A stretch of 64,000 bases of DNA from Planctomycetota bacterium (GTDB lineage Bacteria > Planctomycetota > UBA1135 > JACQFD01), in assembly GCA_016792805.1 (NCBI GenBank), contig JAEUHX010000076.1, forward strand, positions 29,541 to 93,540, in the 5' to 3' direction. A program made the translations under genes and the position numbers. Below, piece after piece: positions 3,373 through 59,837 of the stretch. Numbering within the stretch: the first letter of the stretch is position 1; each line of letters opens with the position of its first letter. The notes below the pieces were generated by a model. It was not told where the DNA came from, did no database searches, and worked only from the letters and a program-made list of their open reading frames with translations.

Positions 3373-3411
3373 GGCATGAGCGCGGAGACCCCGCGCTCAT
3401 GCCATTTTCTC
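3373..3411 (+). terminator. Rho-independent terminator between the two protease paralogs
   Basis: A perfect 13-bp stem ggcatgagcgcgg/ccgcgctcatgcc (3373-3385 and 3391-3403) encloses the loop agacc and is followed by attttctc. The hairpin overlaps the ATG the ORF track used at 3376, which argues against that start. Confidence 0.7.
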
Positions 3412-3489
3412 GGGCGGTTCGTCGGGCTGCGGATGAAAGGGGTATCGTCGGACGCAGCTGACCCGATCGCGCCACTCTGGGCATTGCCC

Positions 3490-6345
3490 ATGGTTCGCTC
3501 CTCCGTGATTGTTCCCCTTTTCGTCGCGTTGCTGTCGGTGCCCTCGGGCCCGTGGGCCCATGGGCTCGATCCCGCTGGGCGCAATGGGGCGGAGAGGCGC
3601 GTCGACGCGATCTCGAAGCGCAGTGGCGGTGGCTGGAGGATCCGTTGGGACGGCGGACGGCCTGCCTTCGCCAGCGGCGGAAGCTGGCTTTTGGCGCCTG
3701 GGGGTATCGGGAGCGAGTCCGAAGCGCTCGCAATTGCGGCGTCGCTACTCCAAGAAGTGCCCGAGCTGTGCGCATGCGGTGCGGCGCTTCTCGATGGACC
3801 GCGCATCGTGGGGACCGGGCCGCTCTATGTGCTCGAGTTCGGGGAGCGCTGGGCCGGTCTCGAAGTTGTCGGCGCGCGTCTCCAGCTTCAGCTCCACCGC
3901 TCGGGGCGGCTCGTGGCATGGAGCGACACGACGCTGGCGATTCCCGAGGGATTCCCGCGGCGGCCCTCGCTCACGCCGGCCGAGGCGCAGGAGGCGGCAC
4001 AACAGTTAGCAGGCGGCGGCCAGGCCGAAGTGCGCGATTTCGTCGTCGGCGCGGCGATCGAGCGTGGAATCGCAGAGCCGCGCCTCGCTTATGTGACAGC
4101 CGTTTCCGGAGTTGCCGGAGGCGAGCGCGAGATTTGGACGATCGACGCGTGCAGCGGCGCACGATTGAGCGCCGCACCCGAGGACTTTCACGCGGCCGAC
4201 ATCCGCGGAACGGTGACCGGAACGCTCAACCCCGCGTTGAGCGGCGCGGCGCCGCCCGTCCCCAATATTCCGATCTCGGGCGTGACCGTTTCCGTCGCGG
4301 GGATCGGCTCGGCGATCACCGATTTCGACGGGAACTTCATAATTCCAACGGCGGTGCAGCAGCCGCAATTCGTGAAGGTCACGCTCGACGGCCCAAGCTT
4401 CGATATCGACTCCGCCACGGGCGACTTCACGGCATCGAAGCAGTCGACGCCGAGCGGCACCGACCAGGTGGTGCTGCTCGAACTCAATAAAATCCCGCAA
4501 GACTTGGTGACGCCGCAGCTCAACGCCGCAGTCCTCCATCGCGTGGCCGATGAATATGTGCGCTCCCGAATCGGAGGATTTGTGGGTTTTCCGGCGCAGG
4601 TCGTGGCCGTCAACCTGCCGATCGGGTGCCTCGCGTCCTACAACCCCTCGAGCAAGTCGCTTCAGTTCGGCGGCGAGCTGTCGGGATGTGTGAATTTCGC
4701 CTTCTCGACGATCCTGTTCCACGAGTTCGGCCACAGCGTCGATGATTTCTACGGCGGAATCCAAGCGCCCGAGCTGTCGGAGGCTCTGGGGGATGTCCTA
4801 GCCACTTATCTCACTCATCAGCCGGTGATCGGCGAGGGCGCTTCGGGCTCTCCGGGCGGGCTGCGGAGCGTCGAGAACGCGGCCCAGTGGCCCGGTGCGA
4901 GCTGCGGAGGTGATCCTTACTGTTTGAGTCAGCCCTTCGCAGGCTTTGCATGGGAGGTGCGCAAGCGGGCGGTGGCATCGCTCGGCGACGCAGCGGGGGT
5001 CGCGCTCGCGGAGAGGCTGCTGCTCGGCACATTCCCGGCGAACAACACGGCGATTCCGGACGCGCTCGTTCAAGTTTTCCTGCTGGACGATGACGACGGG
5101 ATTCTGTCCAACGGCACGCCCCATTATGCACTCTTGTCGGCGGCGGCGTCAGCGAAGGGATTCGCACCGCCTCCGATTGCTACAGTAAGTGTCAGCCATT
5201 TGCCGCATCCGGACACCTGGAATCAGACTCAGCCGTTCACGATTCTCGCGAATGTGGGTTCCTTGACGGGCTCTGCACCGACGTCGGTCTCTCTCGAATG
5301 GTGGGCCGACGGAATCCCGTTTCCGGCGCTCACGGCGATGCTCCCGGACGCGAATGGTACTTATCGAGCGCAGATCCCGGCACTGCAGGCTCCGATCGTG
5401 GTGAGCTATCGGTTTCGAATTGTGGATTCACTGGGGTTGGCCTGGGAGATTCCTCCCGCGGGGAATGCGTATTCGTTTGCCGTCGGAAAGAAGACAATCG
5501 TTCTGCAGAGCGATTTCGAGAGCGGTCCCGCCGGTTGGCAGCATGCGGCACTCGTCGGCAACGATTCTTGGCAGCTCGGCACGCCGCTCGGCGGCTCGCA
5601 GCTCGATCCGACGTTCGCGGCGGAGGGAGCCGCGTGCTTCGGCAATGACCTCGGCGCCGGCGCGAGCGGCGATGGGCTGTATGATTCGGGCGAAGTGAGC
5701 TATCTCGAGTCGCCGCCTTTCTCGGCGGGCTCAAGCAGCAATCTTCGTGTTCGGTTCCGGCGCTGGCTCACGGTGGAAAAGGGCTCGAAAGACCAGGCGA
5801 CGCTTTCCGTCGGCGGCGCGACGCTCTTTATGAATCCGTCGGCGAATGACATTCTGGACACGGAGTGGACTTATCAGGATCTGGCGCTGCCCTCGGGCCT
5901 TCCGCCGCAAGCGCGGCTGCGATTCACGCTGGCGGCCGATGGAGACGGACAGCTCGGCGGCTGGAACATTGACGACGTGGAGGTCTATCGCCTGGAGCCG
6001 ATTCCACAGATCGCGATTCACGTCGGCTCCGCGACCACGGCTCCGCCGCTCAATTCGGTTGTCACGGTCGATCTCACAGGAACGTTGGGCGCGTCTTGGA
6101 ATCTGTATGCTTCGGCGACGTACGGCGCGGTCTCGCTGCCGGGGTTCGGAGTGGTGGAGGTGGGGGAGCCGGTGGCGCCGGTCGGCGGCGGTCAGATCCC
6201 GGCAACGGGCGGGTCGCAATTCGCGTTTTTTGTACCGTTTCATCCAGCGCTGATCGGTCTGAAGACATGGTGGGTGGCCGGAGCCGTGACGACCGGCGCC
6301 TCGCTCCCGCAGATCAGTAATGTGCTGGAGCTGACGTTCCAGTAG
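3490..6345 (+). CDS. Secreted multidomain zinc metalloprotease, paralog 2
   Basis: It aligns by eye with 431..3343 along its whole length. A signal peptide MVRSSVIVPLFVALLSVPSG starts at ATG 3490. The zinc motif is HEFGHSVDD...ELSEALGDV. It has the same jelly-roll region and the same C-terminal tail (..PALIGLKTWWVAGAVTTGASLPQISNVLELTFQ). Confidence 0.85.
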   Translation: MVRSSVIVPLFVALLSVPSGPWAHGLDPAGRNGAERRVDAISKRSGGGWRIRWDGGRPAFASGGSWLLAPGGIGSESEALAIAASLLQEVPELCACGAALLDGPRIVGTGPLYVLEFGERWAGLEVVGARLQLQLHRSGRLVAWSDTTLAIPEGFPRRPSLTPAEAQEAAQQLAGGGQAEVRDFVVGAAIERGIAEPRLAYVTAVSGVAGGEREIWTIDACSGARLSAAPEDFHAADIRGTVTGTLNPALSGAAPPVPNIPISGVTVSVAGIGSAITDFDGNFIIPTAVQQPQFVKVTLDGPSFDIDSATGDFTASKQSTPSGTDQVVLLELNKIPQDLVTPQLNAAVLHRVADEYVRSRIGGFVGFPAQVVAVNLPIGCLASYNPSSKSLQFGGELSGCVNFAFSTILFHEFGHSVDDFYGGIQAPELSEALGDVLATYLTHQPVIGEGASGSPGGLRSVENAAQWPGASCGGDPYCLSQPFAGFAWEVRKRAVASLGDAAGVALAERLLLGTFPANNTAIPDALVQVFLLDDDDGILSNGTPHYALLSAAASAKGFAPPPIATVSVSHLPHPDTWNQTQPFTILANVGSLTGSAPTSVSLEWWADGIPFPALTAMLPDANGTYRAQIPALQAPIVVSYRFRIVDSLGLAWEIPPAGNAYSFAVGKKTIVLQSDFESGPAGWQHAALVGNDSWQLGTPLGGSQLDPTFAAEGAACFGNDLGAGASGDGLYDSGEVSYLESPPFSAGSSSNLRVRFRRWLTVEKGSKDQATLSVGGATLFMNPSANDILDTEWTYQDLALPSGLPPQARLRFTLAADGDGQLGGWNIDDVEVYRLEPIPQIAIHVGSATTAPPLNSVVTVDLTGTLGASWNLYASATYGAVSLPGFGVVEVGEPVAPVGGGQIPATGGSQFAFFVPFHPALIGLKTWWVAGAVTTGASLPQISNVLELTFQ

Positions 6346-6376
6346 AGAGACGCACGCGGACGAACCCGCAGCAATA

Positions 6377-6440
6377 GATAAGTGGGGTTAGCGCGTGCGA
6401 CTTCTTCTTGGCGGATAAGTGGGGTCGGCGCGTGCGCCGA
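6377..6440. repeat. Two direct copies of a short repeat at 37-bp period (gataagtggggtNNgcgcgtgcg)
   Basis: The copies are gataagtggggttagcgcgtgcga (6377-6400) and gataagtggggtcggcgcgtgcgccga (6414-6440). The reverse complement of the same unit recurs at 49396-49563. Confidence 0.7.
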
Positions 6441-6468
6441 CCGGTGTGAGCGCGCGTGCGCGCGTGGC

Positions 6469-6918
6469 TAGCGAGTTGTGACTCGGGAAGAATGGGGCGT
6501 GGTCCGTCTTGGCGCGGCAGCGAACAGTCCAAGAGGCCATTCCAGGACTCCTCCGAGCTGCGCGCGGGACTCGGCGCCCAGCGCGGCGTTGCGCGGCCTC
6601 GGCGTAGCTTCTCGCTACGCCTGCGGCGCGCGCTTTGCGCTGAGCGCCGACTCCTCGCGCTCGCTCTGCGGAGGAATCCTGTCATGGCCTCCCGACGCTC
6701 GGCGGCCCAGTGGCTGCGCAGAATCCGACCGGCGCTTCGCGCCCGTCGGATTCTGCGCGCGCCATGGCCTCGCGTCTGCGGAACTCGCCGCGCCAAGACC
6801 GACCCACGCCCCATTCCAAGCCGTCCCTCATTGGTGAAGCCGAAAGTGTAAGTTCCTCCGTAGGGCGCGGGCATCGCCCGCGACGATCGCGCGCGCGCTT
6901 GCGCGCGCGGATGAAGAA
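6469..6918. repeat. MITE-like nested-palindrome intergenic repeat, copy 1
   Basis: Three blocks recur at 48921-49329. Block 6481-6543 matches 48933-48995 with 2 mismatches in 63 bp. Block 6693-6827 matches 49067-49201 with 2 mismatches in 135 bp. Block 6858-6918 matches 49269-49329 with 1 mismatch in 61 bp. There are inverted repeats of about 30 bp (6490-6518 versus 6787-6816). A central near-perfect 43-bp palindrome lies at 6716-6758 (gcgcagaatccgaccggcgc ttc gcgcccgtcggattctgcgc). Confidence 0.8.
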
Positions 6919-6986: not shown

Positions 6987-8087
6987 TTATAGAAATTCTC
7001 CGCCCACGCGTGTGGCGAACCAGAGGACGCCGGCAAGTGCAATGATCGCGGAGCCGCCGAGAACGGCGAATCGCCGGTAGGTTGACGCGGAGCGCGCGCG
7101 CCAGGCAAGGAGCAAAGGCATGGCAATGGCGATTGCAATCGCCTGGGCGGCCTCGACGCCAAGATTGAAAGATGCCAAACAAATCGCGCGCGCTCCGGCG
7201 GGAAGGCCGGATTCGGCGAGGGCGCCCGCGAATCCGAGCCCATGGATCAGCCCGAAGCCCGCAGCCGTCCACACGCGGCCAACGGACTCTTTGCGCACAC
7301 AATTTTCGATCCCCACATAAACCACGCTGGCGGCAATGGCGGGTTCGACCATAGAGGCGGGGAGCGAAATCCAGCCGAGCGCAGCGAGAGCGAGCGTGAT
7401 GGAGTGGGCCGCGGTGAAGCCCGTGGAGATGAGGAGCGCTTCCCGGACGCGGCGCGCAGCCAGGAGGAGCGCCGCGAGAAACAACAGATGGTCATACCCC
7501 GTGAAGACGTGCTCCATCCCAAGCAGCCCATAATCGAACGCCGAACGGATGAGCGATTCGGCTCCCGGTTCGAGCTCGCGATCGAAAACGGAGTCTGCCC
7601 GGAACAGGAAGGGATCGTCCACGGCACCATAGCGAATACGCCCCAAGCCCTGGTGGCGGGGGTCGTGCTGTCGCAGCGGGCGATATGTGATGCGCAGCCG
7701 CTTGGGCGGTTCCGGCGCCGTCCAGCTCAATCGCAGCACGAGGTCCTCGGGAAACTCCGCGGTGGAGGGCGCCGTTTCGAATGCTTCGAGAGAGGAATCG
7801 AGGGAGCGCCCGTCGGCCTCCACAGAGATCCCGGGGAGAAAGAGCGATTCCAATCCGAAGCGCTGACTCAACACATCTTCGTGGCGCGGGCGCGGCCTCG
7901 GCGATCCGGGCTCAAGATCACGCAGCGCGTAGAAATCAACAAATCCTACGAGGTCGGAGACCTTCATCCGCGTCTCAAGGCGAATGGCGGTCTCCGAAAT
8001 GGTGAAGACGGGATACGAGATCGTATCGGTGTGCGCTGGCGCGTGGATCGCCACGAGCGCGAGCAACGCCAAGGTGAGCAGAGCCAC
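6987..8087 (-). CDS. HupE/UreJ-family membrane protein
   Basis: The signal peptide is MALLTLALLALVAIHAPAHT. The motif GYDHLLFLAALLL and multi-TM C-terminal half (GLIHGLGFAGALAESG) are typical of the HupE/UreJ_2 family. It starts 7 nt downstream of the FG-GAP gene stop. Confidence 0.75.
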   Translation of the reverse strand: MALLTLALLALVAIHAPAHTDTISYPVFTISETAIRLETRMKVSDLVGFVDFYALRDLEPGSPRPRPRHEDVLSQRFGLESLFLPGISVEADGRSLDSSLEAFETAPSTAEFPEDLVLRLSWTAPEPPKRLRITYRPLRQHDPRHQGLGRIRYGAVDDPFLFRADSVFDRELEPGAESLIRSAFDYGLLGMEHVFTGYDHLLFLAALLLAARRVREALLISTGFTAAHSITLALAALGWISLPASMVEPAIAASVVYVGIENCVRKESVGRVWTAAGFGLIHGLGFAGALAESGLPAGARAICLASFNLGVEAAQAIAIAIAMPLLLAWRARSASTYRRFAVLGGSAIIALAGVLWFATRVGGEFL

Positions 8088-10523: not shown

Positions 10524-11054
10524 GTGACAATTTCCAGGCAGAACCCAGATCCGGCGCAGGAGTGCGCCAGGCTTCGTCCGTTGCTCCCGGCGATTCTCGA
10601 CGCCGAGGACCCCGACATTTCCACAGTCCGCGCCCACGTCGCGGATTGTGTAGAGTGTGCACAGATCGCCGCAGATCTCGTGCGGCTCGAGGCGTGGGTC
10701 TCGGCAGACCGTGCGCCCGCACCTTCGACTCATTTCGCCTCTGCGACGGCGGCGCGCATGGTTCGCGAGCTGGAGTCCTCGCGCCGGCCGAGAAGGCTCC
10801 TTCTGCCGCTGACGTCGCTTGCGGCGGTTCTGCTTCTCGGCATCGGAACTGTGATATGGCAATCGTCGGGGCCTGAGACGGTGAATGCTCCCATGCGGGC
10901 CGGCGATCGCATGAAGCTTGAGCGCGCTCTGCGCAGATCCGGTCGTTTCTTTACATCGGCGGCGACGGCCGATCTGGCGCTTCCATTTGTGCCTACGGAC
11001 TCGCTTGCCGAAGTTCACCGATGGCAGGCAGCGGCGAGAAGGGCGAGCCGGTAA
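10524..11054 (+). CDS. Anti-sigma factor (zf-HC2 type), single-pass membrane protein
   Basis: HVADCVEC matches the H-x3-C-x2-C motif. There is one TM helix (LLLPLTSLAAVLLLGIGTVIW). It lies 12 nt after the sigma gene, and its TAA overlaps the next ATG (TAATG at 11052-11056). Confidence 0.8.
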   Translation: MTISRQNPDPAQECARLRPLLPAILDAEDPDISTVRAHVADCVECAQIAADLVRLEAWVSADRAPAPSTHFASATAARMVRELESSRRPRRLLLPLTSLAAVLLLGIGTVIWQSSGPETVNAPMRAGDRMKLERALRRSGRFFTSAATADLALPFVPTDSLAEVHRWQAAARRASR

Positions 11055-12604
11055 TGGGTGTCCTGACGGCAGGCATCCTCTGGGTGCTCGCGGCCACCGC
11101 TTTCGGCGGCGTTCACGAGCCCATCGCTCCGCTGCTGCCGGCGCCGCTGCCAAGCGGGGTGCGCAGCCAGGGACCGCTCTCCAAACCGGCGTCGAGCCCG
11201 GCTGTCGACGTTCCCGCGGACATTCTTGCAAAGATCACCGATCTCGACCGCGCGCTTGTCGCCGATGACCGAAAGGCGCTGCTGGCTCTCTCTGCCGGAG
11301 CTCCCTGCAATGATTCGTTGTGCTGGCTTCGAAGAGCGGAAGCGCTTCTCGAGTGGTTCGACGTCACGGAGCAGCGCACGGAGCCGCACCATGTCGCGAC
11401 GATTGGCGATGCTACTGCCGTTTATGTGAAAGTTTACCAATCGCGACGATGCCGCGGCGGCAAGAACTCCGCTGAAGAGACTGCCGTGGAGCCGCGCGTG
11501 CTGATGTTCCGCCGCACGCAGCAGGGGCTTGTGCTCGTACGTGTGGAGTCGTGGTCCGGCGGACATCTGAAGTGGATCTCCGGGGAGAGAATCGCCTGCT
11601 CGCCCTGCGGGTGGCAAATGAAGCGCCCCGAAGGCTGGTTCGTCGTTCCCCATACGGCGGCGGCCGGGGGCGCCTTCGACTCCGTTTCTTTTGTGCATTC
11701 GGATCTGTCGGTTTCCCTCGACGTAGATTGTCTGGTGGTTCCCAAGACGGAATCCCCGCTCGAGACGGCGACGCGCGACGAGGAGATGGCCGCCAGCGCG
11801 GAAGGCGCAAGCCATGCGGCGGCGGTGAAGCAGATTCGCCGAGAGGAGTCCGTCGAGAAGCTTACAGGCGCATCGGTCGATGGGCTTCGCGCAACACTCA
11901 TCTCCGACGTCGCGACTCAGGAGGGCGGGTCCGCTCGTCACTGGCGGGTCTACCGAGCCTTTCCTCCGTTCCTTTTTGTGCAAGTGGCCCACGGCCCCTC
12001 GAAGGACGTGGCGCAGCTTGAGCCGCAGATTCAGCTTCTTCTCGATTCTCTGGCATTGGACGGGCGGATCGTCGGCAGCCGAGATCAGGCGTTGAAGGTG
12101 GCTTCAGCCCATATGAGGGATTCCGAAGTAGGGAACGGCGAGCTGCGCTGCAAGTCACAGAAATTTGCGGTGAACGTTCCTGAGGGGTGGCACGCGCTGC
12201 CGCGCCCGGGAGTCGGCCGGTTTTGTTGGACTTTCCAGCACCCCGATCATGCCGATGTCTCGATCACGATCGTGGCTCGCGAAACGGAGGGCGCGGACTG
12301 GACGGAACCCGATGTGCGATCGTTTCTCGATGCCCGACGCGAGTCGATCGCCGCGTGGGCCAAGGCTGAGCCGAAGGTTCTCCGCGACACCAGGCGGAAG
12401 CACGAGAAGTCGGGAGAGCTTCTGTACGAAGTGGAGTCGGAGTGGAAGGAAGGCGGCACCGCGGGCGTGGTGCGCGAGCGCATCCACCTGATTCCCGTTG
12501 GCTCCATGTTGCTCTGTATTGTGATTCGCGCGCCTCAGGCGAAATTCTCGGCGCACGTTGAGACTCTGGAGCGGATCGTCGCGTCCTACCATAGAAACAA
12601 ATAG
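11054..12604 (+). CDS. Secreted hypothetical protein with two PsbP/DcrB-like modules (tentative)
   Basis: The signal peptide is MGVLTAGILWVLAATAFGG. Two blocks follow the 'P-E-G-W + beta strands' pattern (MKRPEGWFVVPH..., VNVPEGWHALPR...). It is translationally coupled to the anti-sigma gene. Confidence 0.6.
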   Translation: MGVLTAGILWVLAATAFGGVHEPIAPLLPAPLPSGVRSQGPLSKPASSPAVDVPADILAKITDLDRALVADDRKALLALSAGAPCNDSLCWLRRAEALLEWFDVTEQRTEPHHVATIGDATAVYVKVYQSRRCRGGKNSAEETAVEPRVLMFRRTQQGLVLVRVESWSGGHLKWISGERIACSPCGWQMKRPEGWFVVPHTAAAGGAFDSVSFVHSDLSVSLDVDCLVVPKTESPLETATRDEEMAASAEGASHAAAVKQIRREESVEKLTGASVDGLRATLISDVATQEGGSARHWRVYRAFPPFLFVQVAHGPSKDVAQLEPQIQLLLDSLALDGRIVGSRDQALKVASAHMRDSEVGNGELRCKSQKFAVNVPEGWHALPRPGVGRFCWTFQHPDHADVSITIVARETEGADWTEPDVRSFLDARRESIAAWAKAEPKVLRDTRRKHEKSGELLYEVESEWKEGGTAGVVRERIHLIPVGSMLLCIVIRAPQAKFSAHVETLERIVASYHRNK

Positions 12605-46461: not shown

Positions 46462-46846
46462 TCGTGGCTTCCTAGGTTCCAGGGGCTTCGATCGGGTCTC
46501 GTTGTTCTTCGAGCACGTGGTTGGAGAACCGCTCTCCAGCGGTTCGAAGTTCACTTTTCGCGAGATTGAGGAGAGACGCGTGAGGCGTAGCCAAGGAGTT
46601 TCGTCGATCGCGGCTCGACGGTGAGATTGCGAAGAGGGGACGAGAAGCGCCGGAATGAGTCCTTCAGCGGCCTGCCCGGAATCCGCGAAGGAATCCGTTC
46701 TTGCGTTGGCGGCGAGACGCCATTCGCCGAGCGTCAGCTTCGGCGCCGACGAGACGAGCGAACACTTATCGGACGGCGTCCGGCTTCGAACCGCGGCGCT
46801 TTCCCTTCGAGCGCCAGCTCGGTACGGTCATGGGGAACTGCGCCCC

Positions 46847-48331
46847 ATGTTCCGCAAGGTCCTCATCGCCAATCGCGGCGAAATCGCGCTCCGCGTCATC
46901 CGCACCTGCCGCGAGCTCGGAATTCCCACCGTTGCCGTCTATAGCGACGTCGACCGCAACGCCCTCCACGTCCGCATGGCCGAAGAGGCCGTGCGGATCG
47001 GCGCGGCGCCGCCGAGTCAATCGTATTTGAAGGTGGAGGCGATTCTCGATGCGGCGCGCTCCACCGGTGCGCAGGCGATCCACCCCGGCTACGGCTTTCT
47101 GAGCGAGAAGGCACATTTCGCTGAAGCCGTTGAGCAGGCCGGGCTCACGTTTATCGGGCCGCCATCGACGGCAATGCGGCGCATGGGAGACAAGTTGTCG
47201 TCCCGCACCGCCATGGTGAAGGCTGGCGTTCCGGTCGTTCCCGGGCTCACGGAGCCGGTGGCCGACCTGGACGCTGCCGTTCGGGAGGCGGCCAAGATCG
47301 GCTACCCCGTGGCGCTGAAGGCGGCCGGCGGCGGCGGTGGAAAGGGGATTCGCCGCTGCGCGGATCCGAAGGATCTCCCGTCGGCTTTCCGCACGGCGAG
47401 CGGCGAAGCGCTCTCTGCCTTTGGCGACGGCAGGATCTACATCGAGCGCTATCTCGATCGCCCTCGGCACATCGAGGTGCAGATCGTCGGCGACAAGCAC
47501 GGCAATGTTGTGGCCGTCGGCGAGCGCGAGTGCACGATTCAGCGGCGCCACCAGAAGCTGCTCGAGGAGGCGCCGTCGGTCATTCTCGATGGCGCGTCAC
47601 GCCAGGCGATTCGCGAAGCGGCGGTGAAGGCGGCCAAGGCCGTCGGATACCACAATGCCGGAACTGTGGAATTTCTCTGGAGCGGGGGTCAGTTCTTCTT
47701 CCTTGAGATGAACTGCCGCCTCCAGGTGGAGCACCCGGTGACGGAGATGGTCTACAGCGTCGACCTCGTGCGTGAGCAGCTCCGCGTGGCCGCCGGAGAG
47801 AAGCTCACACTTCGCGACGGCATGGAGCCGCGCGGGCATGCGATCGAAGTGCGCGTGAACGCGGAGGATCCCGACAAAGGATTCCTGCCCTCCATCGGCA
47901 AAGTTGCCAATATTCGGCTGCCCGGAGGACCGTGGGTGCGCGTCGACTCGGGGCTCTACCGCGGATATGAGGTCACGCCCTACTACGACTCGCTTCTCGC
48001 AAAAGTGATCGCTTGGGGAGCTGACCGCGCCCAGGCGATCGCGCGTATGGAGCGGGCGCTGGCGGAGCTGCACGTCGGCGGCGTGAAGACGACGGCGCCG
48101 CTGGCGCTTCGCGTGCTGCGCGATCCGAGCTTTCGCGCGGGAGATTTTGACACTCACTTTTTGGAGACTTTCACACCCCCGCGAAACGCGGAGCGCGAGG
48201 AGGTGGCGGCGCTGGTGGCGGCGGTTCACAGACACCTCGGCACGTCGCGGCAGGCGCTGAAGGCGCGCAGCCAGGGGGCAGCGAGCGGCGGATTGTCGCC
48301 TTGGGTCGCGTCGTGGAGGGTGGGCCGATGA
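46847..48331 (+). CDS. accC: Biotin carboxylase subunit of acetyl/propionyl-CoA carboxylase
   Basis: The start is MFRKVLIANRGEIALRVIRTCRELGI at ATG 46847. Motifs are GGGGKGIR and FLEMNCRLQVEHPVTE. Confidence 0.92.
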   Translation: MFRKVLIANRGEIALRVIRTCRELGIPTVAVYSDVDRNALHVRMAEEAVRIGAAPPSQSYLKVEAILDAARSTGAQAIHPGYGFLSEKAHFAEAVEQAGLTFIGPPSTAMRRMGDKLSSRTAMVKAGVPVVPGLTEPVADLDAAVREAAKIGYPVALKAAGGGGGKGIRRCADPKDLPSAFRTASGEALSAFGDGRIYIERYLDRPRHIEVQIVGDKHGNVVAVGERECTIQRRHQKLLEEAPSVILDGASRQAIREAAVKAAKAVGYHNAGTVEFLWSGGQFFFLEMNCRLQVEHPVTEMVYSVDLVREQLRVAAGEKLTLRDGMEPRGHAIEVRVNAEDPDKGFLPSIGKVANIRLPGGPWVRVDSGLYRGYEVTPYYDSLLAKVIAWGADRAQAIARMERALAELHVGGVKTTAPLALRVLRDPSFRAGDFDTHFLETFTPPRNAEREEVAALVAAVHRHLGTSRQALKARSQGAASGGLSPWVASWRVGR

Positions 48332-48867
48332 AGTATTTTGTGAACGTTGCCGGGCGCGATCTGGAAGTGGTGTTCGAGCAGCGCGGCGACGACGTGTACG
48401 CCCGCGTGGGCGATCGTGAGCACCGCGTCTCGTACTCGGAGGTCGATGGCCTCGGGCAGTACTCGATCCTGGTGGATGGGAAGTCGTGGGCCGCGTCGAT
48501 CGAGGCACCGAAGGGTTCCCACGGGAAGTCCTTGGAAGGGGAGTTCTCGGTCGGGCTCGCGGGTGAGGTTTTTCCGGTGCTCATTGAGAACGAGCGCGAG
48601 CGTGCGGCGCACGCCGCAGAGCGCGGAGGCGGCCGCGGCCCTCGGACGGTTCAAGCGGCGATGCCTGGAATTGTGGTGTCGCTGCTGGTGAAGGAGGGCG
48701 ACGTGGTGGAGGAGGGGGCAGCGCTGCTCGTGCTGGAAGCGATGAAGATGCAGAACGAGGTCCGTGCGGAGGCGGCCGGCCGCGTGGAGAAGATCCATGC
48801 AGAAGCCGGAAAGACGGTGTCGGCCGGGCAGAACCTGGTGACGCTCGGGCCGGTGCCGGAGAAGTAA
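48328..48867 (+). CDS. Biotin carboxyl carrier protein (biotinyl/lipoyl domain)
   Basis: An ATGA overlap with accC lies at 48328-48331. The biotinylation motif is LVLEAMKMQNEV. Confidence 0.85.
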   Translation: MKYFVNVAGRDLEVVFEQRGDDVYARVGDREHRVSYSEVDGLGQYSILVDGKSWAASIEAPKGSHGKSLEGEFSVGLAGEVFPVLIENERERAAHAAERGGGRGPRTVQAAMPGIVVSLLVKEGDVVEEGAALLVLEAMKMQNEVRAEAAGRVEKIHAEAGKTVSAGQNLVTLGPVPEK

Positions 48868-48920
48868 CGAACGCTCGATTGTTGAGAATTTGGCGTGGCC
48901 GACCATGGCGCGCCCGCGGA

Positions 48921-49329
48921 TAGCGAGTCATCACTCGGGAAGAATGGGGCGTGGTCGGTCTTGGCGCGGCAGCGGACAGTCCAAGAGGCCATTCCGGGAT
49001 AAGTTTGATTTGAGCACTCGGGAAGAAAGGGGCGTGGTCGGTCTTGGCGCGACAGCGGACAGTCCTCGACGCTCGGCGGCCCATCGGCTGCGCAGAATCC
49101 GACCGGCGCTTCGCGCCCGTCGGATTCTGCGCGCGCCATGGCCTCGCGTCTGCGGAACTCGCCGCGCCAAGACCGACCCACGCCCCATTCCAAGCCGTCC
49201 CGCATCTGTGAAGCGGATGGGGGGTGCGACCTGGCGCGGCAACATCCCCACAGATTCCTTCGTTGTCGCCGTAGGGCGCGGGCATCGCCCGCGACGATCT
49301 CGCGCGCGCTTGCGCGCGCGGATGAAGAA
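48921..49329. repeat. MITE-like nested-palindrome intergenic repeat, copy 2 (with a duplicated left arm)
   Basis: It has the same blocks as 6469-6918. The left arm is present twice (48933-48995 and 49016-49066). It lacks the hairpin-rich segment of about 145 bp found at 6548-6692 in copy 1. Confidence 0.8.
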
Positions 49330-49395
49330 CCCAGCCACGGCCTCAAGTTCCACAGCCCGATCGCCACCGCGCGGGGCGCGCCCCGCGGAGACTGG

Positions 49396-49563
49396 TCGGC
49401 GCACGCGCCGACTCCACTTCAATAAAATCCTCCTGCGCACGCGCCGACCCCACTTCTACAAAATCGTCGATTCCGCGCGTTGAACTCAGTTCAACAAAGT
49501 CGTCCAGCACACGCGCCTATACCACTTCTTCAAAGTAGTTCAGCGCGTGCGCAGACCCTACGG
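49396..49563. repeat. Degenerate tandem array, period about 36-38 bp (gcgcacgcgccgaccccacttc...), the reverse complement of the 6377-6440 repeat
   Basis: The units are tcggcgcacgcgccgactccacttcaat (49396-49423), ctgcgcacgcgccgaccccacttctac (49434-49460), cagcacacgcgcctataccacttcttc (49505-49531) and a degenerate cagcgcgtgcgcagaccctacgg (49541-49563). A palindrome ttgaactcagttcaa lies at 49480-49494. Confidence 0.7.
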
Positions 49564-49618
49564 ATCGATTGGGAAACGCTCTCGCCGCGGCTTTTATTGC
49601 AACCCCGGCAGCGGTCCG

Positions 49619-50176
49619 CTAGCTGAGGGGTTTCGAGCGGACCCAGTCGCGGAGCTTTGGGAGCGAGCGATCGGTGTATTCGGGTGAGAGTCGCTCGAGG
49701 AGAAAGGTTCGGAAGACTCCGTCGAGCGCCGTCGAGATCTGCTCGTAAGCGGTGACGGTCTCAAGCGCGCGCACATGGGCCTCTTCTTCCTCGCTCTCGG
49801 GGACGGAGCAGGAGCGAAGGGAGAAGGTCTCGGCATCAAAAGTGGTATTCCACTCGCGGTCGGCGTCGGCCACGATGAGCCGCGCGCGCACGAGCCGCTT
49901 GCCGCGCTTCAGGGCCGCTGCGGCCTCCACTCCGGAAAGCGGCCGGCCGTGGCGCAGCGACTGTTCGGGGCGCTTGCCCTCCTCGTCCTCGCGCCGATCG
50001 CGCAGGACGAGCGGGCCGTCGAGCGCGATGCCAACGGATCGCCCGCCGCCGAGGTCGTACTCCGACTCGCCGGCCTCAAAGCGCCACCAAAGCCACGTCA
50101 GGAACTCCTCGCCGAGAAACGCGCGCTCGTCGCGCGCCACCTGCGGCTCGGACTCTTTTGCGGATTTCGGACTCAC
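49619..50176 (-). CDS. RdgC-like protein, C-terminal-half homolog
   Basis: AFLGEEFLTWLWW...KRGKRLVRARLIV...FDAETFSLRS...ALDGVFRTFLLERL aligns by eye with the C-terminal half of RdgC (LTLTEWV...AGKVVTKLAL...RFDADFILM...LIQNLIEGL). The GTG start overlaps the upstream TGA (GTGA at 50173-50176). Confidence 0.55.
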   Translation of the reverse strand: MSPKSAKESEPQVARDERAFLGEEFLTWLWWRFEAGESEYDLGGGRSVGIALDGPLVLRDRREDEEGKRPEQSLRHGRPLSGVEAAAALKRGKRLVRARLIVADADREWNTTFDAETFSLRSCSVPESEEEEAHVRALETVTAYEQISTALDGVFRTFLLERLSPEYTDRSLPKLRDWVRSKPLS

Positions 50177-50823
50177 GCCTCCACCTCCTGCGCGCGGGCC
50201 GATGCCGCGCGCGAACTCCCGACGAGATCGGCCGGGCTGATGTGCGACATTACTTTTCGAAGCGGATCGGGCAGCTTCAATCGCTCGGCGACGATCGACG
50301 GCGTCGCTGGCGCAAGCGACCGCCGGAAGCTCTCGCGGAAATGCCGCGCGACGCGCTCGAGCGTCGCTCCACCTGTTGCAAAAACATACAGAACACCGCG
50401 CCGCGGATTCCAGATGCAGTCGGTGATCGACACCGAGGGCAGCGCGCGCGCCATGAGTTTGCGCTTGGTCTCCTCGAGGATCTCCTTCTTCTGCGCGCGG
50501 CCAAGCGGCTTGCCGCCCGATGCGGCCGCGCGCAGATCGGCCGAGGCGTGAATCCGAAGCAGCGTCGCCGGAACCTTCTTTCGGTCGATGCGCAGCGCGA
50601 AGACGAGGAAGTGCTCCGCGATCACATCTTCCGGCTCGAATCGGGCGCCGCTCAGGTCACCCCGTGTGACCCAGCCGACCGATTCATCGTCGGTGGCGCT
50701 CCCCTCGATCGGCTTGAACCGCTCGCGCTCAAGCGCTTTCAGAAGCGACAAATCGGAGACGTCGGCGGGCTCGCCCTCGACGAAGAAGCGCACAAAGGAG
50801 CCCGAGCGCCGGAATCGATGCAT
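50173..50823 (-). CDS. RdgC-like protein, N-terminal-half homolog
   Basis: RFKPIEGSATDDESVGWV...LVFALRIDRKKVPATLL...KKEILEETKRKLMARALPS...CIWNPRRGVLYVFA...LERVARHFRESF aligns by eye with the RdgC N-terminal half (FTPCG..MGWVPP..VICARKEEKILPSPV..LLPRAF..MMWIDTVNGLIMVD..LALLRKSLG). Confidence 0.6.
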   Translation of the reverse strand: MHRFRRSGSFVRFFVEGEPADVSDLSLLKALERERFKPIEGSATDDESVGWVTRGDLSGARFEPEDVIAEHFLVFALRIDRKKVPATLLRIHASADLRAAASGGKPLGRAQKKEILEETKRKLMARALPSVSITDCIWNPRRGVLYVFATGGATLERVARHFRESFRRSLAPATPSIVAERLKLPDPLRKVMSHISPADLVGSSRAASARAQEVEA

Positions 50824-55796: not shown

Positions 55797-58502
55797 GTGC
55801 CCACCACCGCGCATCCGCCGCTTCCCGTCGACCGCACGCCGAGCGTGACGATCGCGCTCTTCGACGGCGACCGCGGAAACCTTCAAGCGCGCCTGCTGGA
55901 GGCGGCGGCCCAGGACTACGCCGGGCCGCTGCAGACCGTCGTGGTCGCTTCGGCCCATCGCGACGCGCTCGCACCGAAGCTTGCGGCAGCGCCGTGGGCG
56001 ATTTGCGCACCGCGAGCGGGGCGCGGAGCCGATGCGCTCGAGGCGGCACTCGAGTGCGCCGCCAGCGACTGGATCGCGCTTCTCCCCGGAGAAGCCCATC
56101 CCCATCCGCTATGGGTGGACGAGCTAGTCGCCCTCGCCGTGGGACGGCCCGATGTCTTTGCAGTCGCGCCGTCGCTGCGTCGCGGAACCGGGGCGCTGCT
56201 GGGAGCCGGAGCGCGCGTGCGCGAAGACGGCGGCTGGGAAGGGAGCCTGGATGAGCCGGCGGAACCTTCGTCCGAGATCGCCTGCGCGCTCGGCGACGGA
56301 CTGCTCGTACACGCGCCCGCGCTCCGCGAATTGTTGCCTCTCGAAGCGGGGCTCGACCTTCGCGCGCTCGGAGTCGAGATCACTCTTCGCGCGAGGGCGC
56401 GCGGGTTGCGCATCGTGTATGCGCCTCGGAGCCGCGTCGTGGTGGCCGCTCGAGCTCAACAAAAAGGGGAGAAGCGTCTCACGATCGATGAGCAGGCGGA
56501 ATTGTTGCTTGTGGCTCGCCATCAGCCGCAGTCGCTCGCGCGCGCTCTCGGGCGCATGGCGATCGTCTCCGACCGCAACGACGCCGCCGAGGAGGTGCTT
56601 CGCGAGGCGATGCGCCGCGCAGGCATCGACTCGCCGCAGGCGCTTCCGAAACTTTTGTTGGAAGGGGTCGCCGGCTGGGCACGGCGCGCCTTCGATGCGG
56701 AGTCACAAATCGTCGAGCTGCGCGATCGGCTCGCTGCGATCGAGCACGAGCACCACGAGACCCTCGTGACTCTCCACCGCGAGATGTCATGGGCGCACAC
56801 GCTCAATCAGAAGGTGGCTGACATGACGTCGGCCGGCGAGCGCGAGCGGGCGAAGGCGGCCGCCGATCTGGAGAAGGCGCGCCAGGATGCCGATCGCGAG
56901 AAGGAGGCGGTGGTTCGCGCGCTGGCGGAGGCGGAGCGCAAGCTCGGCGTCGCGCTGCGGGAGCAGGAGCTCATTGCCGCGGAGCGCGCGGGGCTCGTTG
57001 CAACAGAAACGCGGGTCGCGTCGCTGGAGGCCCGGTGGCGCGATGCCGAGCAGAGGCGCGAGACGGCCGAGCGCGAGGGTGCGGTCGCGGCCGAGCGGGC
57101 GCGGCTCCTCGAGGAGGCGCGCGCGATGCTCGAACAGGCGAGGCGCGAAGCCGAGGAGGCTCGGCGCGCGGAGGCGGAGCGACGCGCGCAGGCGGAGCTC
57201 GAGCTGCGCACATCCCAGGACCGCGCGCGCGCCAGCGCCGAGGAAGTCGATGTGTTGCGTCGCGACGCAAAGGCCGCGGCCGCCGAGAGGGTCGAACTGG
57301 GAGCGCGCCTCGCGGCAGCGGAGGAGGCGTTTCGCGGCGCTTCGGGTGCGCTGGCAGCAAGCCAGTTGGAAGCATCACGCCTCGCAGAGCGGCTCGCCGA
57401 GACGGAGCAGCGCCGTGAGAAGGCGGAGCGAGCGCTGGCGGACCAGCAGGTGGAGACGCAGGCGCTTCGCGATTCGCTCGCCGCGCGTGCGACCGCCCTT
57501 ACAGAAGAGCTCACTGCGGAGCGGCGCGCCCGCGAGGAGAGCTCGGCGTTGGCCGAAAGCACTGCGGAGAGGCTTGTTGCGCTCGAGGCCGATCTCGAGG
57601 TGGCGGTGTCGGCGCGCACGGTGCTGGAGCGCGTGGCGAGCGAGCAGCGCGTACAGCTCGATCAGTCGCGTGCGCGCGCCGAAGGGCAGGATCAGCGGAT
57701 TCGTGAGCTTTCGAGTGCGCTCGAGGGGCTGCGGCGCGATCTGGCCTCGGCGGAGTCGGCCTACGCTGGCGAGCGGACGGAGCGGCTTCGGCTTGCGGAA
57801 GAGGTGGCGGCGCTGCGCGTTCAGTGGAACGACTCGGTGGAGCGCGAGGAGCGCGTCATGGCGGAGCTGGTGCAGCTCCAGGCCGATTCCGAGGCGGCGG
57901 CGCGCGCCCATCGCGAGACGCTGGAGCGCTGGGAGCGGGAATGGACGGAGCATCGCACGGACCTCCAGAGGCAGCTTGCGAGCGAGAGGCTCGAGCGGAG
58001 TTCGCTGGAGCAGCACCGCGGGCATCTGGAGACTCTTCTTACAGAAACGCGCGGGCGCGCGGCGGAGCTCGAGGCGGCGCATGCGCAGACGCGCGAGGAG
58101 CTCGAGCGATTCCGGATGGAGATGACGGCCTATGCGCAGCGCCTCGAGGCGGAGCTGAACATGGTGCGCGCGGAGAATGGTGAACTTCATCAATCTCTCC
58201 ATGCCGAACAAGTCCATGCGGCGATGCTCCATGAGAATCTGCGCGGCGCGTGGGCGACGATCGAGTCGCTGCGCCGCTCGCTCGATGAGACGCACGCACG
58301 CCTCGCCGAGCGCCAGGGGGACCTGGCGCGGCTGCGTGCACAGATGCTCGCCGATGCGGACAAGATGGCGGAGCGGCTGGTTCGATATCTGGAAGAGATT
58401 CAGAAGCCGCGCTGGATGGGGCGCAAGCTCTCCCGCGACGAGCGCGCGTGGCTCGTGGGCCCCGGCGCTCGATATGTGACTTCAAAGATCGGGCCTGGGT
58501 AG
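55797..58502 (+). CDS. Degenerate GT2-like N-terminal domain fused to a coiled coil of about 600 aa
   Basis: The N-terminal roughly 230 aa follow GT-A spacing (SVTIALFDGD...TVVVASAHRD...SDWIALLPGEAHP). The usual Asp positions are replaced. From about nt 56700 to 58400 the sequence is continuous E/R/A/L-rich heptad repeat (AERRAQAELELR..., LEADLEVAVSAR...). Confidence 0.7.
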   Translation: MPTTAHPPLPVDRTPSVTIALFDGDRGNLQARLLEAAAQDYAGPLQTVVVASAHRDALAPKLAAAPWAICAPRAGRGADALEAALECAASDWIALLPGEAHPHPLWVDELVALAVGRPDVFAVAPSLRRGTGALLGAGARVREDGGWEGSLDEPAEPSSEIACALGDGLLVHAPALRELLPLEAGLDLRALGVEITLRARARGLRIVYAPRSRVVVAARAQQKGEKRLTIDEQAELLLVARHQPQSLARALGRMAIVSDRNDAAEEVLREAMRRAGIDSPQALPKLLLEGVAGWARRAFDAESQIVELRDRLAAIEHEHHETLVTLHREMSWAHTLNQKVADMTSAGERERAKAAADLEKARQDADREKEAVVRALAEAERKLGVALREQELIAAERAGLVATETRVASLEARWRDAEQRRETAEREGAVAAERARLLEEARAMLEQARREAEEARRAEAERRAQAELELRTSQDRARASAEEVDVLRRDAKAAAAERVELGARLAAAEEAFRGASGALAASQLEASRLAERLAETEQRREKAERALADQQVETQALRDSLAARATALTEELTAERRAREESSALAESTAERLVALEADLEVAVSARTVLERVASEQRVQLDQSRARAEGQDQRIRELSSALEGLRRDLASAESAYAGERTERLRLAEEVAALRVQWNDSVEREERVMAELVQLQADSEAAARAHRETLERWEREWTEHRTDLQRQLASERLERSSLEQHRGHLETLLTETRGRAAELEAAHAQTREELERFRMEMTAYAQRLEAELNMVRAENGELHQSLHAEQVHAAMLHENLRGAWATIESLRRSLDETHARLAERQGDLARLRAQMLADADKMAERLVRYLEEIQKPRWMGRKLSRDERAWLVGPGARYVTSKIGPG

Positions 58503-58529: not shown

Positions 58530-58562
58530 AAAAAAAGACCCGCCGAAGCCGGGTCTTTTTTG
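58530..58562. terminator. Bidirectional rho-independent terminator
   Basis: The sequence is aaaaaaa-gacccg-ccgaagc-cgggtc-ttttttt. The stem (58537-58542 and 58550-55) is flanked by an A run and a T run. It lies between the convergent stops at 58502 (+) and 58578 (-). Confidence 0.8.
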
Positions 58563-58577
58563 TGGCATCCGAACTAC

Positions 58578-59837
58578 TTACTTCTTCGCGCCGTCTGCCG
58601 GTGCGCTGGCCGGTGCGCCCGCCGGCGCACTCGCTGGCACACCCTTCGGCTTGCGCGGGAGCTGCGGGGGCACGAACGGCTCGTAGGCCGGGTCGAGCAC
58701 TTCCACCTGCATGCCGCGAATCAGCGCCTGGATCTGCCCCTGGGCCTGCTCGAACGGAACGCCGAAATTGTAACCAAGCAGGATGCGCCGAATCGTGACT
58801 TTTGCCGCCGTCGGATCGTTGGGATTCTCCTGAAGCGCCTCCAGCTTCAGGATCTCAACACCCTGAATCGTTGCAATCGGCCCAGAGATGTCGCCCGGCT
58901 TCATCTCCTGGATCGCCGCGCGCTCAAAATCATTGAGGATCATCGGATTCGCTTCGAAGCGTCCGCCGAAGGCCTTCGTCGACGGGTCGTCCGACACGTT
59001 CGACGCCAAGTCCTCAAACGTCTTCTGCCCGGAGATCACCTGCGAGCGCAGGTCGTTCGCGCGCTTGAAGAGTGCGGGAATCTGCGGCCCCGTCGATTTC
59101 AGCACTGCGGCGCGCGGCAACAGCGCCTGATTCAGCACAAATTGCGCGAGCGACTCATCGCGGGCGTCTTTCATGTAGCGACGGCGCGCCGAAACCATCT
59201 TCTCGAGGTCTCCCCGGAAGACCGGCTCGCCGTGCACAGCGGCGATCTGATTCGCCGCCTTCTCGGGATCGAACGGCGGGAGCGTCGGACCCGCCGGCTG
59301 GGAAGCCGTCGGGGCCGCCGAACTCGAAACTGCCAGATCCCGCCGAAGCTCCGGCGATGGCTTGAAGCCCGCCGTGGCGTCGATTCCACGCGCACCAAAG
59401 AGCCGCTTCGTCGTCTCGCCGGCAACCATCGTCTCGATGCCCATGGCGCGCCGTTGGATCTCGATCGCGATGTTCGAGACCTCCGTGCGGATCGCCTCAA
59501 TCTCCGGCTTGGGCGGCTCGGCCTCCGGCGGCTTCGCATTCTCCGTCCCCGACATCCGCCGCAGCGTTTGAACACGCGTCGCCAACGTCGTCAGGCGTGA
59601 CGAGAGCCGCTCCGCCTTTTGTTCAATCGTGAGCGGCGTCGGTGGCGGGAGCTGCTGCGGCGCTGTGCCCGTGAGCGCTGTACCCGGATTCGGCCCGCCA
59701 GGAGCCGGGATGGCGCCCCCCTGGGGACCGGGAATCGGAAGGGGGGACTGCGGAAGCGCGAGGAGGCTAAAAGCGAGGAGAAGCATCGGAGCGGCCGTCG
59801 GGTTGTGGGCGAGCAGAGTATCGGACTCGCCGGGCAT
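58578..59837 (-). CDS. Periplasmic parvulin-type peptidyl-prolyl isomerase (SurA/PpiD-like)
   Basis: The PPIC-type rotamase block is QKTFEDLASNVSDDPSTKAFGGRFE...FERAAIQEMKPGDISGPIATIQGVEILKLE. The start is ATG 59837, or ATG 59786 (MLLLAFSLLALPQSP). Confidence 0.75.
   Translation of the reverse strand: MPGESDTLLAHNPTAAPMLLLAFSLLALPQSPLPIPGPQGGAIPAPGGPNPGTALTGTAPQQLPPPTPLTIEQKAERLSSRLTTLATRVQTLRRMSGTENAKPPEAEPPKPEIEAIRTEVSNIAIEIQRRAMGIETMVAGETTKRLFGARGIDATAGFKPSPELRRDLAVSSSAAPTASQPAGPTLPPFDPEKAANQIAAVHGEPVFRGDLEKMVSARRRYMKDARDESLAQFVLNQALLPRAAVLKSTGPQIPALFKRANDLRSQVISGQKTFEDLASNVSDDPSTKAFGGRFEANPMILNDFERAAIQEMKPGDISGPIATIQGVEILKLEALQENPNDPTAAKVTIRRILLGYNFGVPFEQAQGQIQALIRGMQVEVLDPAYEPFVPPQLPRKPKGVPASAPAGAPASAPADGAKK

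Follow-up and report, generated by a model that had tools for sequence, protein, structure and literature searches.

Two intergenic repeat loci of an uncultured Planctomycetota-like bacterium are probably BIME-like mosaics of extragenic palindromic repeats

Two repeat mosaics between convergent genes

The window analysed in our study, by which we mean the whole stretch of 64,000 nucleotides, has a G+C content of about 65%, and several metagenome runs, SRR12425356 among them, have yielded public contigs that match it with 100% identity. The gene content of the window ORFs with Pfam data is housekeeping, and the 185-aa protein encoded next to the second of the two loci described here has its closest named relatives, about 50% identical, in MAGs named 'Planctomycetes bacterium'. 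Two intergenic regions of the window, locus 1 and locus 2, carry clusters of structured repeats between convergent genes (Table 1); the flanking ORFs are supported by Pfam, and the same calls have been made independently in public assemblies. The original prediction noted that both copies lie between convergent gene ends; this placement does not extend beyond the window, where a third locus, on the contig L032, sits between co-directional genes. It had also noted the absence of a transposase: zero transposase domains were found in the window ORFs that were Pfam-scanned or that have precomputed Pfam calls on matching contigs, and neither the window nor the ~100 kb of fetched related DNA showed a RAYT or any other transposase.

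Table 1. Flanking genes and repeat modules at the two loci, in window coordinates
Feature	Position	Strand	Details
Flanking gene, locus 1 left	3376-6345	+ (implied by convergence)	stop codon upstream of the Z unit
Degenerate 36/37-nt Z unit	6376-6412	+	AAGTGGGGTTAGCGCGTGCG at 6380-6399; lies past the stop codon of gene 3376-6345
Z1, REP-like double hairpin	6413-6468	+	GTGG tag 6419-6422; 7-nt linker
Z1 hairpin 1	6423-6442	+	GGTCGGCGC-GT-GCGCCGACC
Z1 hairpin 2	6450-6463	+	GCGCGC-GT-GCGCGC
X, full-length with Y	6481-6846	+	TIR-L 6490-6518, TIR-R 6787-6816
X right flank, conserved	to ~6839	+	AGCCGTCCC.CAT..GTGAAG
Y, imperfect inner palindrome of ~150 nt	6533-6691	+	ends GAGGCCAT...ATGGCCTC; right junction recurs in P0052
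Y centre	6601-6621	+	GGCGTAGC-TTCTC-GCTACGCC
X central 43-nt palindrome	6716-6758	.	19/20 pairs, loop TTC
C1, REP-like double hairpin	6858-6918	+	GTAG tag 6860-6863; hairpin 2 6890-6909; tail GGATGAAGAA
C1 hairpin 1	6864-6884	+	GGCGCGGGC-ATC-GCCCGCGAC
Flanking gene, locus 1 right	6987-8087	-	HupE_UreJ_2 (Pfam)
Flanking genes, locus 2 left	46655-48331, 48301-48867	+	biotin carboxylase, BCCP (Pfam scan)
Decayed Z unit and double-hairpin remnant	48868-48932	+	directly 3' of the BCCP stop codon
Solo X left arm	48933-48999	+	TIR 48942-48970; Y-left junction stub GAGGCCATTCC at 48985-48995
X without Y	49016-49217	+	TIR-L 49025-49053 (2 mismatches), palindrome 49090-49132, TIR-R 49161-49190
'Extra' module	49218-49268	+	degenerate TIR-like stretch GGATGGGGGGTGCGACCTGGCGCGGCAAC; none at locus 1; twice in L032
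C2, REP-like double hairpin	49269-49329	+	GTAG tag 49271-49274; hairpin 2 49301-49320; 98% identical to C1
Z2, REP-like double hairpin	49366-49422	-	GTGG then AGTCGGCGC-GT-GCGCCGACC (perfect part 49395-49412); 6-nt linker
Z2 hairpin 2	49370-49387	-	CGCGGGGCG/CGCCCCGCG
Z array, about four degenerate units of 36 nt	49423-49566	-	downstream of gene 49619-50176
Decayed GTAG-tagged hairpin inside the Z array	49539-49561	-	
Flanking gene, locus 2 right	49619-50176	-	185-aa ORF, conserved RdgC partner

Comparison of the two loci bears out that the same repeat is present at both. The regions 6458-6918 and 48910-49329 have three blocks in common with 90-98% identity, namely 6458-6547 and 48910-48999 (90%), 6693-6843 and 49067-49217 (96%), and 6858-6918 and 49269-49329 (98%), and the longest exact run common to both is 116 nt (6712-6827 = 49086-49201). 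The features that had been read from the sequence are present in both copies: terminal inverted repeats (TIRs) of about 30 nt (6490-6518 / 6787-6816 at locus 1 and 48942-48970 / 49161-49190 at locus 2), a central 43-nt palindrome with 19 of 20 pairs and a 3-nt loop, and the GC hairpin CGCGCGCGCTTGCGCGCGCG, which forms hairpin 2 of C1 and C2. The paired TIR arms differ by one 1-nt indel and zero or one mismatch, and the TIR pattern GGGGCGTGGN{2,4}GTCTTGGCGCG has five matches in the window against 0.00 expected. A second repeat family, AAGTGGGGTnnGCGCGTGCG, adjoins the long element, which we call X, at both loci (six matches against 0.17 expected). The order of modules is also the same, running from the stop codon through one or more Z units and X to the C double hairpin, and the homology between the loci reaches left to just past the stop codons by way of the decayed unit 48868-48932, which aligns to 6361-6480 but has suffered deletions within its hairpin arms; on the far side, locus 2 alone has a further Z double hairpin and array, in inverted orientation. 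X is one module of a mosaic and not the whole repeat, and the modules occur complete, partial, duplicated and inverted, in agreement with the modular, REP/BIME-like character that had been suggested.

The element X measures 202 nt without the inner palindrome Y and 366 nt with it, has TIRs of 29 and 30 nt and shows no coding signal; its mutated TIR positions (6505, and two in 49025-49053) are without compensation. The additional 145-nt segment of copy 1 (6548-6692) and the doubled left arm of copy 2 (48933-48999 and 49016-49066) are both as first described. The reading of this segment as an insert in copy 1 is not supported, because the form containing Y is the commoner one: the left junction of Y is also present at locus 2 (48985-48999), a spurious ORF from another assembly (P0052, see below) starts exactly at the right junction, and three Y junctions therefore stand against one Y-less joint, which makes Y more likely an integral part of X and the Y-less copy a deletion. 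Y thus probably belongs to full-length X, with copy 2 as its deletion derivative, and loss by deletion is a plausible fate for a hairpin.

When the RNA was folded, as had been proposed as a check, both regions proved far stronger than shuffled sequences (z = -10.7 and -7.2), and X alone, folded as DNA, gave z = -10.8 and -8.4 against its shuffles. The regions are non-coding, as anticipated, and a coding reading is excluded by Arg-rich ORFs, by the lack of Pfam matches and by indels of 145 and 83 nt, neither of which is divisible by three; gene calling from GC3 gave no useful information. A search of the window against Rfam 15 at gathering score gave 0 matches, and those below threshold were miRNA-precursor-like only, with 21-31 bits against cut-offs of 60-168. 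Neither a canonical U-tract terminator nor a promoter-like site was found at the two loci. Elsewhere in the window, a canonical bidirectional terminator (A-tract, GC hairpin, T-tract) lies at 58533-58562, between the convergent genes 55797-58502 and 58578-59837, and it is conserved in a related species (L029, 1616-1647); the organism thus relies on standard terminators at sites that have no repeat cluster, so that a terminator role for the repeats is not needed.

Tagged double hairpins

At least four tagged double hairpins, together with arrays of 36-nt units, are present at the two loci. The Z repeat is made of tandem units of about 36 nt that end in a perfect hairpin, the one given for Z1 hairpin 1 in Table 1, with GTGG just before it. 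We compared ten double hairpins from the window, from the related species (L029) and from the third locus (L032), and they have a common architecture: a tag, a 9-bp GC-rich hairpin with a loop of 2-3 nt, a linker of 4-7 nt and a second hairpin of 6-9 bp, often ended by a GATGA tail. The tag is GTAG in six of them, GTGG in three and GTTG in one. Hairpin 1 keeps its 9-bp stem and 2-3-nt loop in all ten, with 0-2 of the nine positions not Watson-Crick (two only in L029Z), and it exists in six sequence versions in which both-sided changes at pairs 3, 4, 5 and 7 leave the pairing intact; pairing amounts to 93% for a hairpin's own arms versus 71% for arms exchanged between versions. A GTAG or GTGG tag is carried by just 5 of 540 loosely defined hairpins in the window, four of the five being within the two loci.

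These hairpins have three of the features by which REPs are recognised. First, REPs are imperfect palindromes of 20-40 nt with a stem of 6-13 bp and a short loop, and hairpin 1 falls within these bounds. Second, REPs bear an unpaired GTAG, or degenerate GTRG, tag at one end, as nine of the ten units do. Third, they lie in extragenic clusters downstream of ORFs at all three loci (two convergent, one co-directional); in the window the clusters start at most 20 nt from a stop codon, whereas in L032 the start falls within the upstream ORF, in its called 3' end. It has been reported that GTAG-tagged REPs, with 6-13-bp stems and 2-3-nt loops and arranged as dimers or clusters downstream of genes, occur in Planctomycetes, and that most GTAG-20 elements of Opitutus terrae, a member of the PVC superphylum, carry a GTGG tag (PMC3733652).

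There is covariation between the tag's third base and the 3' foot of hairpin 1. Units with GTAG have a foot ending in ...(G/A)AC, which leaves a G.A mismatch at pair 2, and those with GTGG or GTTG have a foot ending in ...(A/T)CC, which makes a G-C pair there. The units compared are 6860-6884, 49271-49295, 49539-49561 (minus strand), 6419-6442 and 49394-49417 (minus strand) in the window, and 10838-10868, 10950-10975 (minus strand) and 11200-11225 (minus strand) in L032. This covariation, drawn from few independent lineages, could be the trace of recognition by a protein.

Copies outside the window and structural instability

We searched 1.8 billion representative proteins, without a profile, with the 197-aa ORF that happens to span locus 2 as the query, and two ORFs that read through other copies came back. 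The first, P0052 (MBL8695913.1, locus tag JNJ88_17595), belongs to an NCBI Planctomycetes MAG and covers an X::Y copy whose right flank is different. The second, P0053, lies on L032, a JGI contig of 131 kb, where the third mosaic (10681-11400) is placed between co-directional genes unrelated to those of the window. Copies beyond the window do exist, as had been expected, and in different contexts and combinations; with L032 and P0052, the original prediction's own reservation that there might be only these two copies no longer applies. The L032 mosaic comprises a solo X right arm, 94-95% identical and joined to the upstream ORF at its end, three units of about 22 nt (GATTCC..GTGGGG) with a final perfect hairpin, and two minus-strand GTAG double hairpins with a Z-type stem. 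A unit of about 250 nt, made of partial TIR-R, 'extra' module, C and reversed double hairpins, occurs there twice, with 90% and 86% identity to 49167-49331, and the locus as a whole has three X right arms and zero left arms. The called ORF of P0053 (L032 10001-10897, CarboxypepD_reg-type) extends about 70 codons into the repeat cluster, so the gene may have lost its original 3' end and stop codon to the repeat.

Three loci are known as DNA and one more as protein. A high copy number is indicated indirectly, by 3-4 loci within about 100 kb sampled from three related assemblies and by the assembly breaks described below. Scans with the TIR pattern gave 6 and 10 matches in genome and metagenome contig collections, all of them chance matches of about 24 nt, and scans of viral contigs gave chance matches only. 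It is important to consider that L032 has the TIR pattern yet is absent from the metagenome scan, so that these negatives reflect incomplete collections and not rarity. Two six-frame composite protein searches (one for X, Y and C, the other for the Z arrays) returned nothing; this is a weak negative, since the 8000 candidates considered were probably taken up by low-complexity words. The distant relatives L031 and L099-L101 (52-57% protein identity) are without any module.

Public assemblies provide a further indication of copies elsewhere. We mapped the contig ends of k=31 assemblies (Logan) that are 100% identical to the window, and they fall at 6442 (four assemblies), 6859 (four), 49363 (three) and 48962 (one contig recurring in ten samples). 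The only 31-mers repeated inside the window are those of 6712-6827 / 49086-49201 and 6858-6888 / 49269-49299; the 31-mer common to locus 1 and locus 2 predicts the break at exactly 6859, and the breaks at 6442, 48962 and 49363, which have no 31-mer repeat in the window, need copies or variants outside it. These three breaks coincide with module edges: the tag and hairpin of Z1 make up precisely the last 30 nt before the break at 6442, and 48962 - 29 = 48933, the left edge of X as set by its internal duplicate. Strain variants could produce identical breaks, so the assembly ends support outside copies without proving them. Not every assembly break marks a repeat element, as is seen from a public contig of 15,387 nt that starts at 6859 and ends at 22245, in an ABC-transporter ATPase gene near the conserved signature motif; this second break is probably a 31-mer in common with a paralogue or another organism.

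The clusters are also unstable. In the species with 88% DNA identity (L029), which is represented in the runs SRR12808458 and SRR9903539, the orthologous Z array is shorter by exactly 72 nt, which is two units, and the 36-nt Z units (window 49423-49542 compared with L029 10600-10700) behave as a variable-number tandem repeat. Duplications of 83 nt at locus 2 and about 250 nt in L032, along with deletions of hairpin arms, show frequent slippage and recombination. We also compared the region 48868-49618 with three relatives (L031 10556-14042, L099 10571-16496 and L101 3327-8857), in all of which cytochrome-c-like and HEAT-repeat genes, plus others, separate the 185-aa gene from the BCCP gene. 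The window lacks these cytochrome-c and HEAT genes and has the repeat mosaic in their place, as would follow from a deletion or rearrangement at the locus 2 cluster.

Interpretation, competing explanations and flanking genes

We consider it probable that the two loci are BIME-like mosaics of lineage-specific extragenic palindromic repeats in an uncultured Planctomycetota-like bacterium. A new REP/BIME-like family with an embedded MITE-like long palindrome, an ordinary kind of element, is the best-supported description. The modules recur at non-orthologous loci and in relatives, combine in a modular way, keep the complementarity of their stems, and have been duplicated and deleted. Two building blocks would make up the mosaics, namely REP-type double hairpins tagged with GTAG or GTGG and the TIR-bounded palindrome X, of about 200 nt without Y and about 360 nt with it. 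Their spread and reshuffling would take place at the DNA level, as single-stranded hairpins, and the family resemblance suggests mobilisation by a RAYT-type HUH tyrosine transposase that would recognise the GTRG tag and act in trans, with replication slippage and recombination between hairpins operating alongside it. Since the clusters begin so close to stop codons, they would be transcribed as 3' UTRs, and their very stable hairpins may impede 3'-5' exonucleases as well as read-through between neighbouring genes; this protective and barrier role at the RNA level is suggested by position and predicted stability.

The closest known systems are the GTAG-tagged REPs and their clusters, such as the BIMEs of Escherichia coli and the REPINs, which have GC-rich hairpins with stems of 6-10 bp, loops of 0-3 nt and an unpaired 5' GTAG (PMC3733652). 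Further points of likeness are the GTGG tag that some copies share with most GTAG-20 elements of O. terrae, the complementary stem variants, the pairs and clusters mixed with other conserved motifs, the position just downstream of convergent or co-directional genes, and the tandem reiteration together with bits of flanking DNA. Unlike those repeats, the ones described here form fixed modules in which a linker joins two unlike hairpins and GATGA forms the tail, and they are accompanied by a TIR-bounded palindrome of 200-360 nt. The likeness to the published GTAG families (Di Nocera et al. 2013, PMC3733652) is one of described architecture and tag. A second comparison is with the TIR repeats that flank the RAYT-like 'TIRYT' genes and have the common motif GGGGWSAS (PMC3733652): these are also non-self-complementary units of about 30 nt, found as inverted dimers or clusters, moderately abundant, present alongside REPs and led by a GGGG motif. 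The X TIR does not fit GGGGWSAS, as GGGGCGTG agrees at two of the four variable positions, and among Z units GGGGTCGG or GGGGTTAG do not fit it either, the only fit being GGGGTCAG in L029.

The original prediction called the long element MITE-like, and this label stands for its TIRs, its size below 500 nt and its lack of an ORF; in the strict sense it is not supported, because target-site duplications are lacking, many arms occur alone or incomplete, and no matching IS was seen in the window or in plasmid and phage collections. Taken further, X would be a classical MITE, the deletion derivative of an IS with a DDE transposase, moved by cut-and-paste through its TIRs, and the neighbouring hairpins would be unrelated to it. 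We regard this as unlikely, although several copies of 200-360 nt with TIRs of 29-30 nt and no coding capacity are what a MITE would give, and the nested palindrome resembles nested MITEs. X likewise resembles the bacterial families ERIC/IRU, Correia/NEMIS, RUP and Nezha in its length (100-400 nt in those families), in TIRs of about 30 nt without an ORF, in its predicted folding into a long hairpin in mRNA and in its intergenic, presumably co-transcribed positions, and it resembles ERIC in having size variants produced by internal insertions and deletions at fixed points. However, no direct repeat flanks any X copy at any candidate boundary (flanks GAGTTGTG/CCGAAAGTG and GATTTGAG/CGGATGGGG), and the similarity between the loci runs past the TIRs on both sides; the whole order Z-X-C being common to both window loci, they look more like copies of a composite than like X inserted cleanly on two occasions. 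Complete units are fewer than solo and truncated arms, and no IS ending in GAATGGGGCGTGG was found in the window or in plasmid or phage collections, where the BLASTN searches were empty. In contrast to those MITE families, X has no parent IS in view and lies embedded among tagged REP-like hairpins.

A somewhat more doubtful proposal takes the whole Z-X(Y)-C composite of about 500 nt as a REP-bounded, non-autonomous single-strand transposon, HUH/RAYT-like or IS200/IS605-like, whose cargo would be a large structured RNA with a three-way junction; it would then be a mobile unit and not a mere neighbourhood of independent repeats. The composite does carry a tagged hairpin at each end, both oriented alike, and lacks a target duplication, as in PATEs of the IS200/IS605 type; this combination is what single-strand transposition by HUH enzymes would be expected to leave. 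Unlike in PATEs, the arrangement in L032 breaks the Z-X-C unit; TnpA and TnpB were not found, and there were no Rfam matches of the HEARO/omega-RNA type.

It is improbable, and to a slightly greater degree, that a single segmental duplication or gene conversion of a spacer gave rise to the window copies, in which case the repeat would be immobile and the remaining similarity would reflect a few old loci of shared ancestry. The same module order from the stop codon through GGATGAAGAA at both loci speaks for such an event, as do the unrelated flanking genes, which would mean that only the spacer was copied; within the mosaic reading, too, these two loci could go back to one duplication of a composite. 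Against a single event as the whole explanation, L032 and P0052 present other orders, other gene contexts and partial forms, locus 2 has a further inverted double hairpin and array on its other side, and three of the four assembly breakpoints call for sequences beyond the window.

Very improbable is the proposal that X, with Y, is a large structured ncRNA gene or a cis-regulatory RNA of the upstream genes with a conserved fold: the predicted structure is very stable, it lies directly downstream of genes and the X right arm is 94-95% identical between the window and L032, but there is no Rfam family beyond the sub-threshold miRNA-hairpin matches and no promoter-like site, both strands of a palindrome fold equally well, the arm mutations are uncompensated, and copies are truncated, duplicated or fused into an ORF. 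Other known classes were also considered and rejected. A type III toxin-antitoxin system, with the Z arrays as ToxI-like 36-nt repeats, does not agree with units that are 67-83% alike and have no toxin gene after them; CRISPR arrays are discarded as there are no spacers, and retrons and attC sites as there is no reverse transcriptase or integrase.

Read as BIME-like mosaics, the loci bring an uncultured Planctomycetota lineage into the range of tagged REP/BIME-type repeats, here in the unusual form of a fixed two-hairpin module associated with a long palindrome, and they account for the breaks that short-read assemblies of the organism show between these genes. The clusters mark sites of structural change. 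If a cognate RAYT is found, the GTAG and GTGG variants with their co-varying hairpin feet would offer a natural test set for how the substrate is read. The consequences are modest and no long-standing question is opened.

Two features of the genes flanking the loci deserve mention. At locus 2, rdgC (49619-50823, minus strand) looks split: a 216-aa ORF covers just profile positions 14-158 of 298, and the overlapping 185-aa ORF has no Pfam match, some of its homologues being named RdgC by JGI; this two-gene arrangement is kept in all the relatives fetched. At locus 1, the 32-nt gap that separates two paralogous genes of about 1000 aa contains a perfect hairpin with a 13-bp stem, GGCATGAGCGCGG-AGACC-CCGCGCTCATGCC (3373-3403), and the ATG of gene 3376-6345 lies inside it, so that the hairpin may occlude the start codon or serve as an inter-cistronic processing site.
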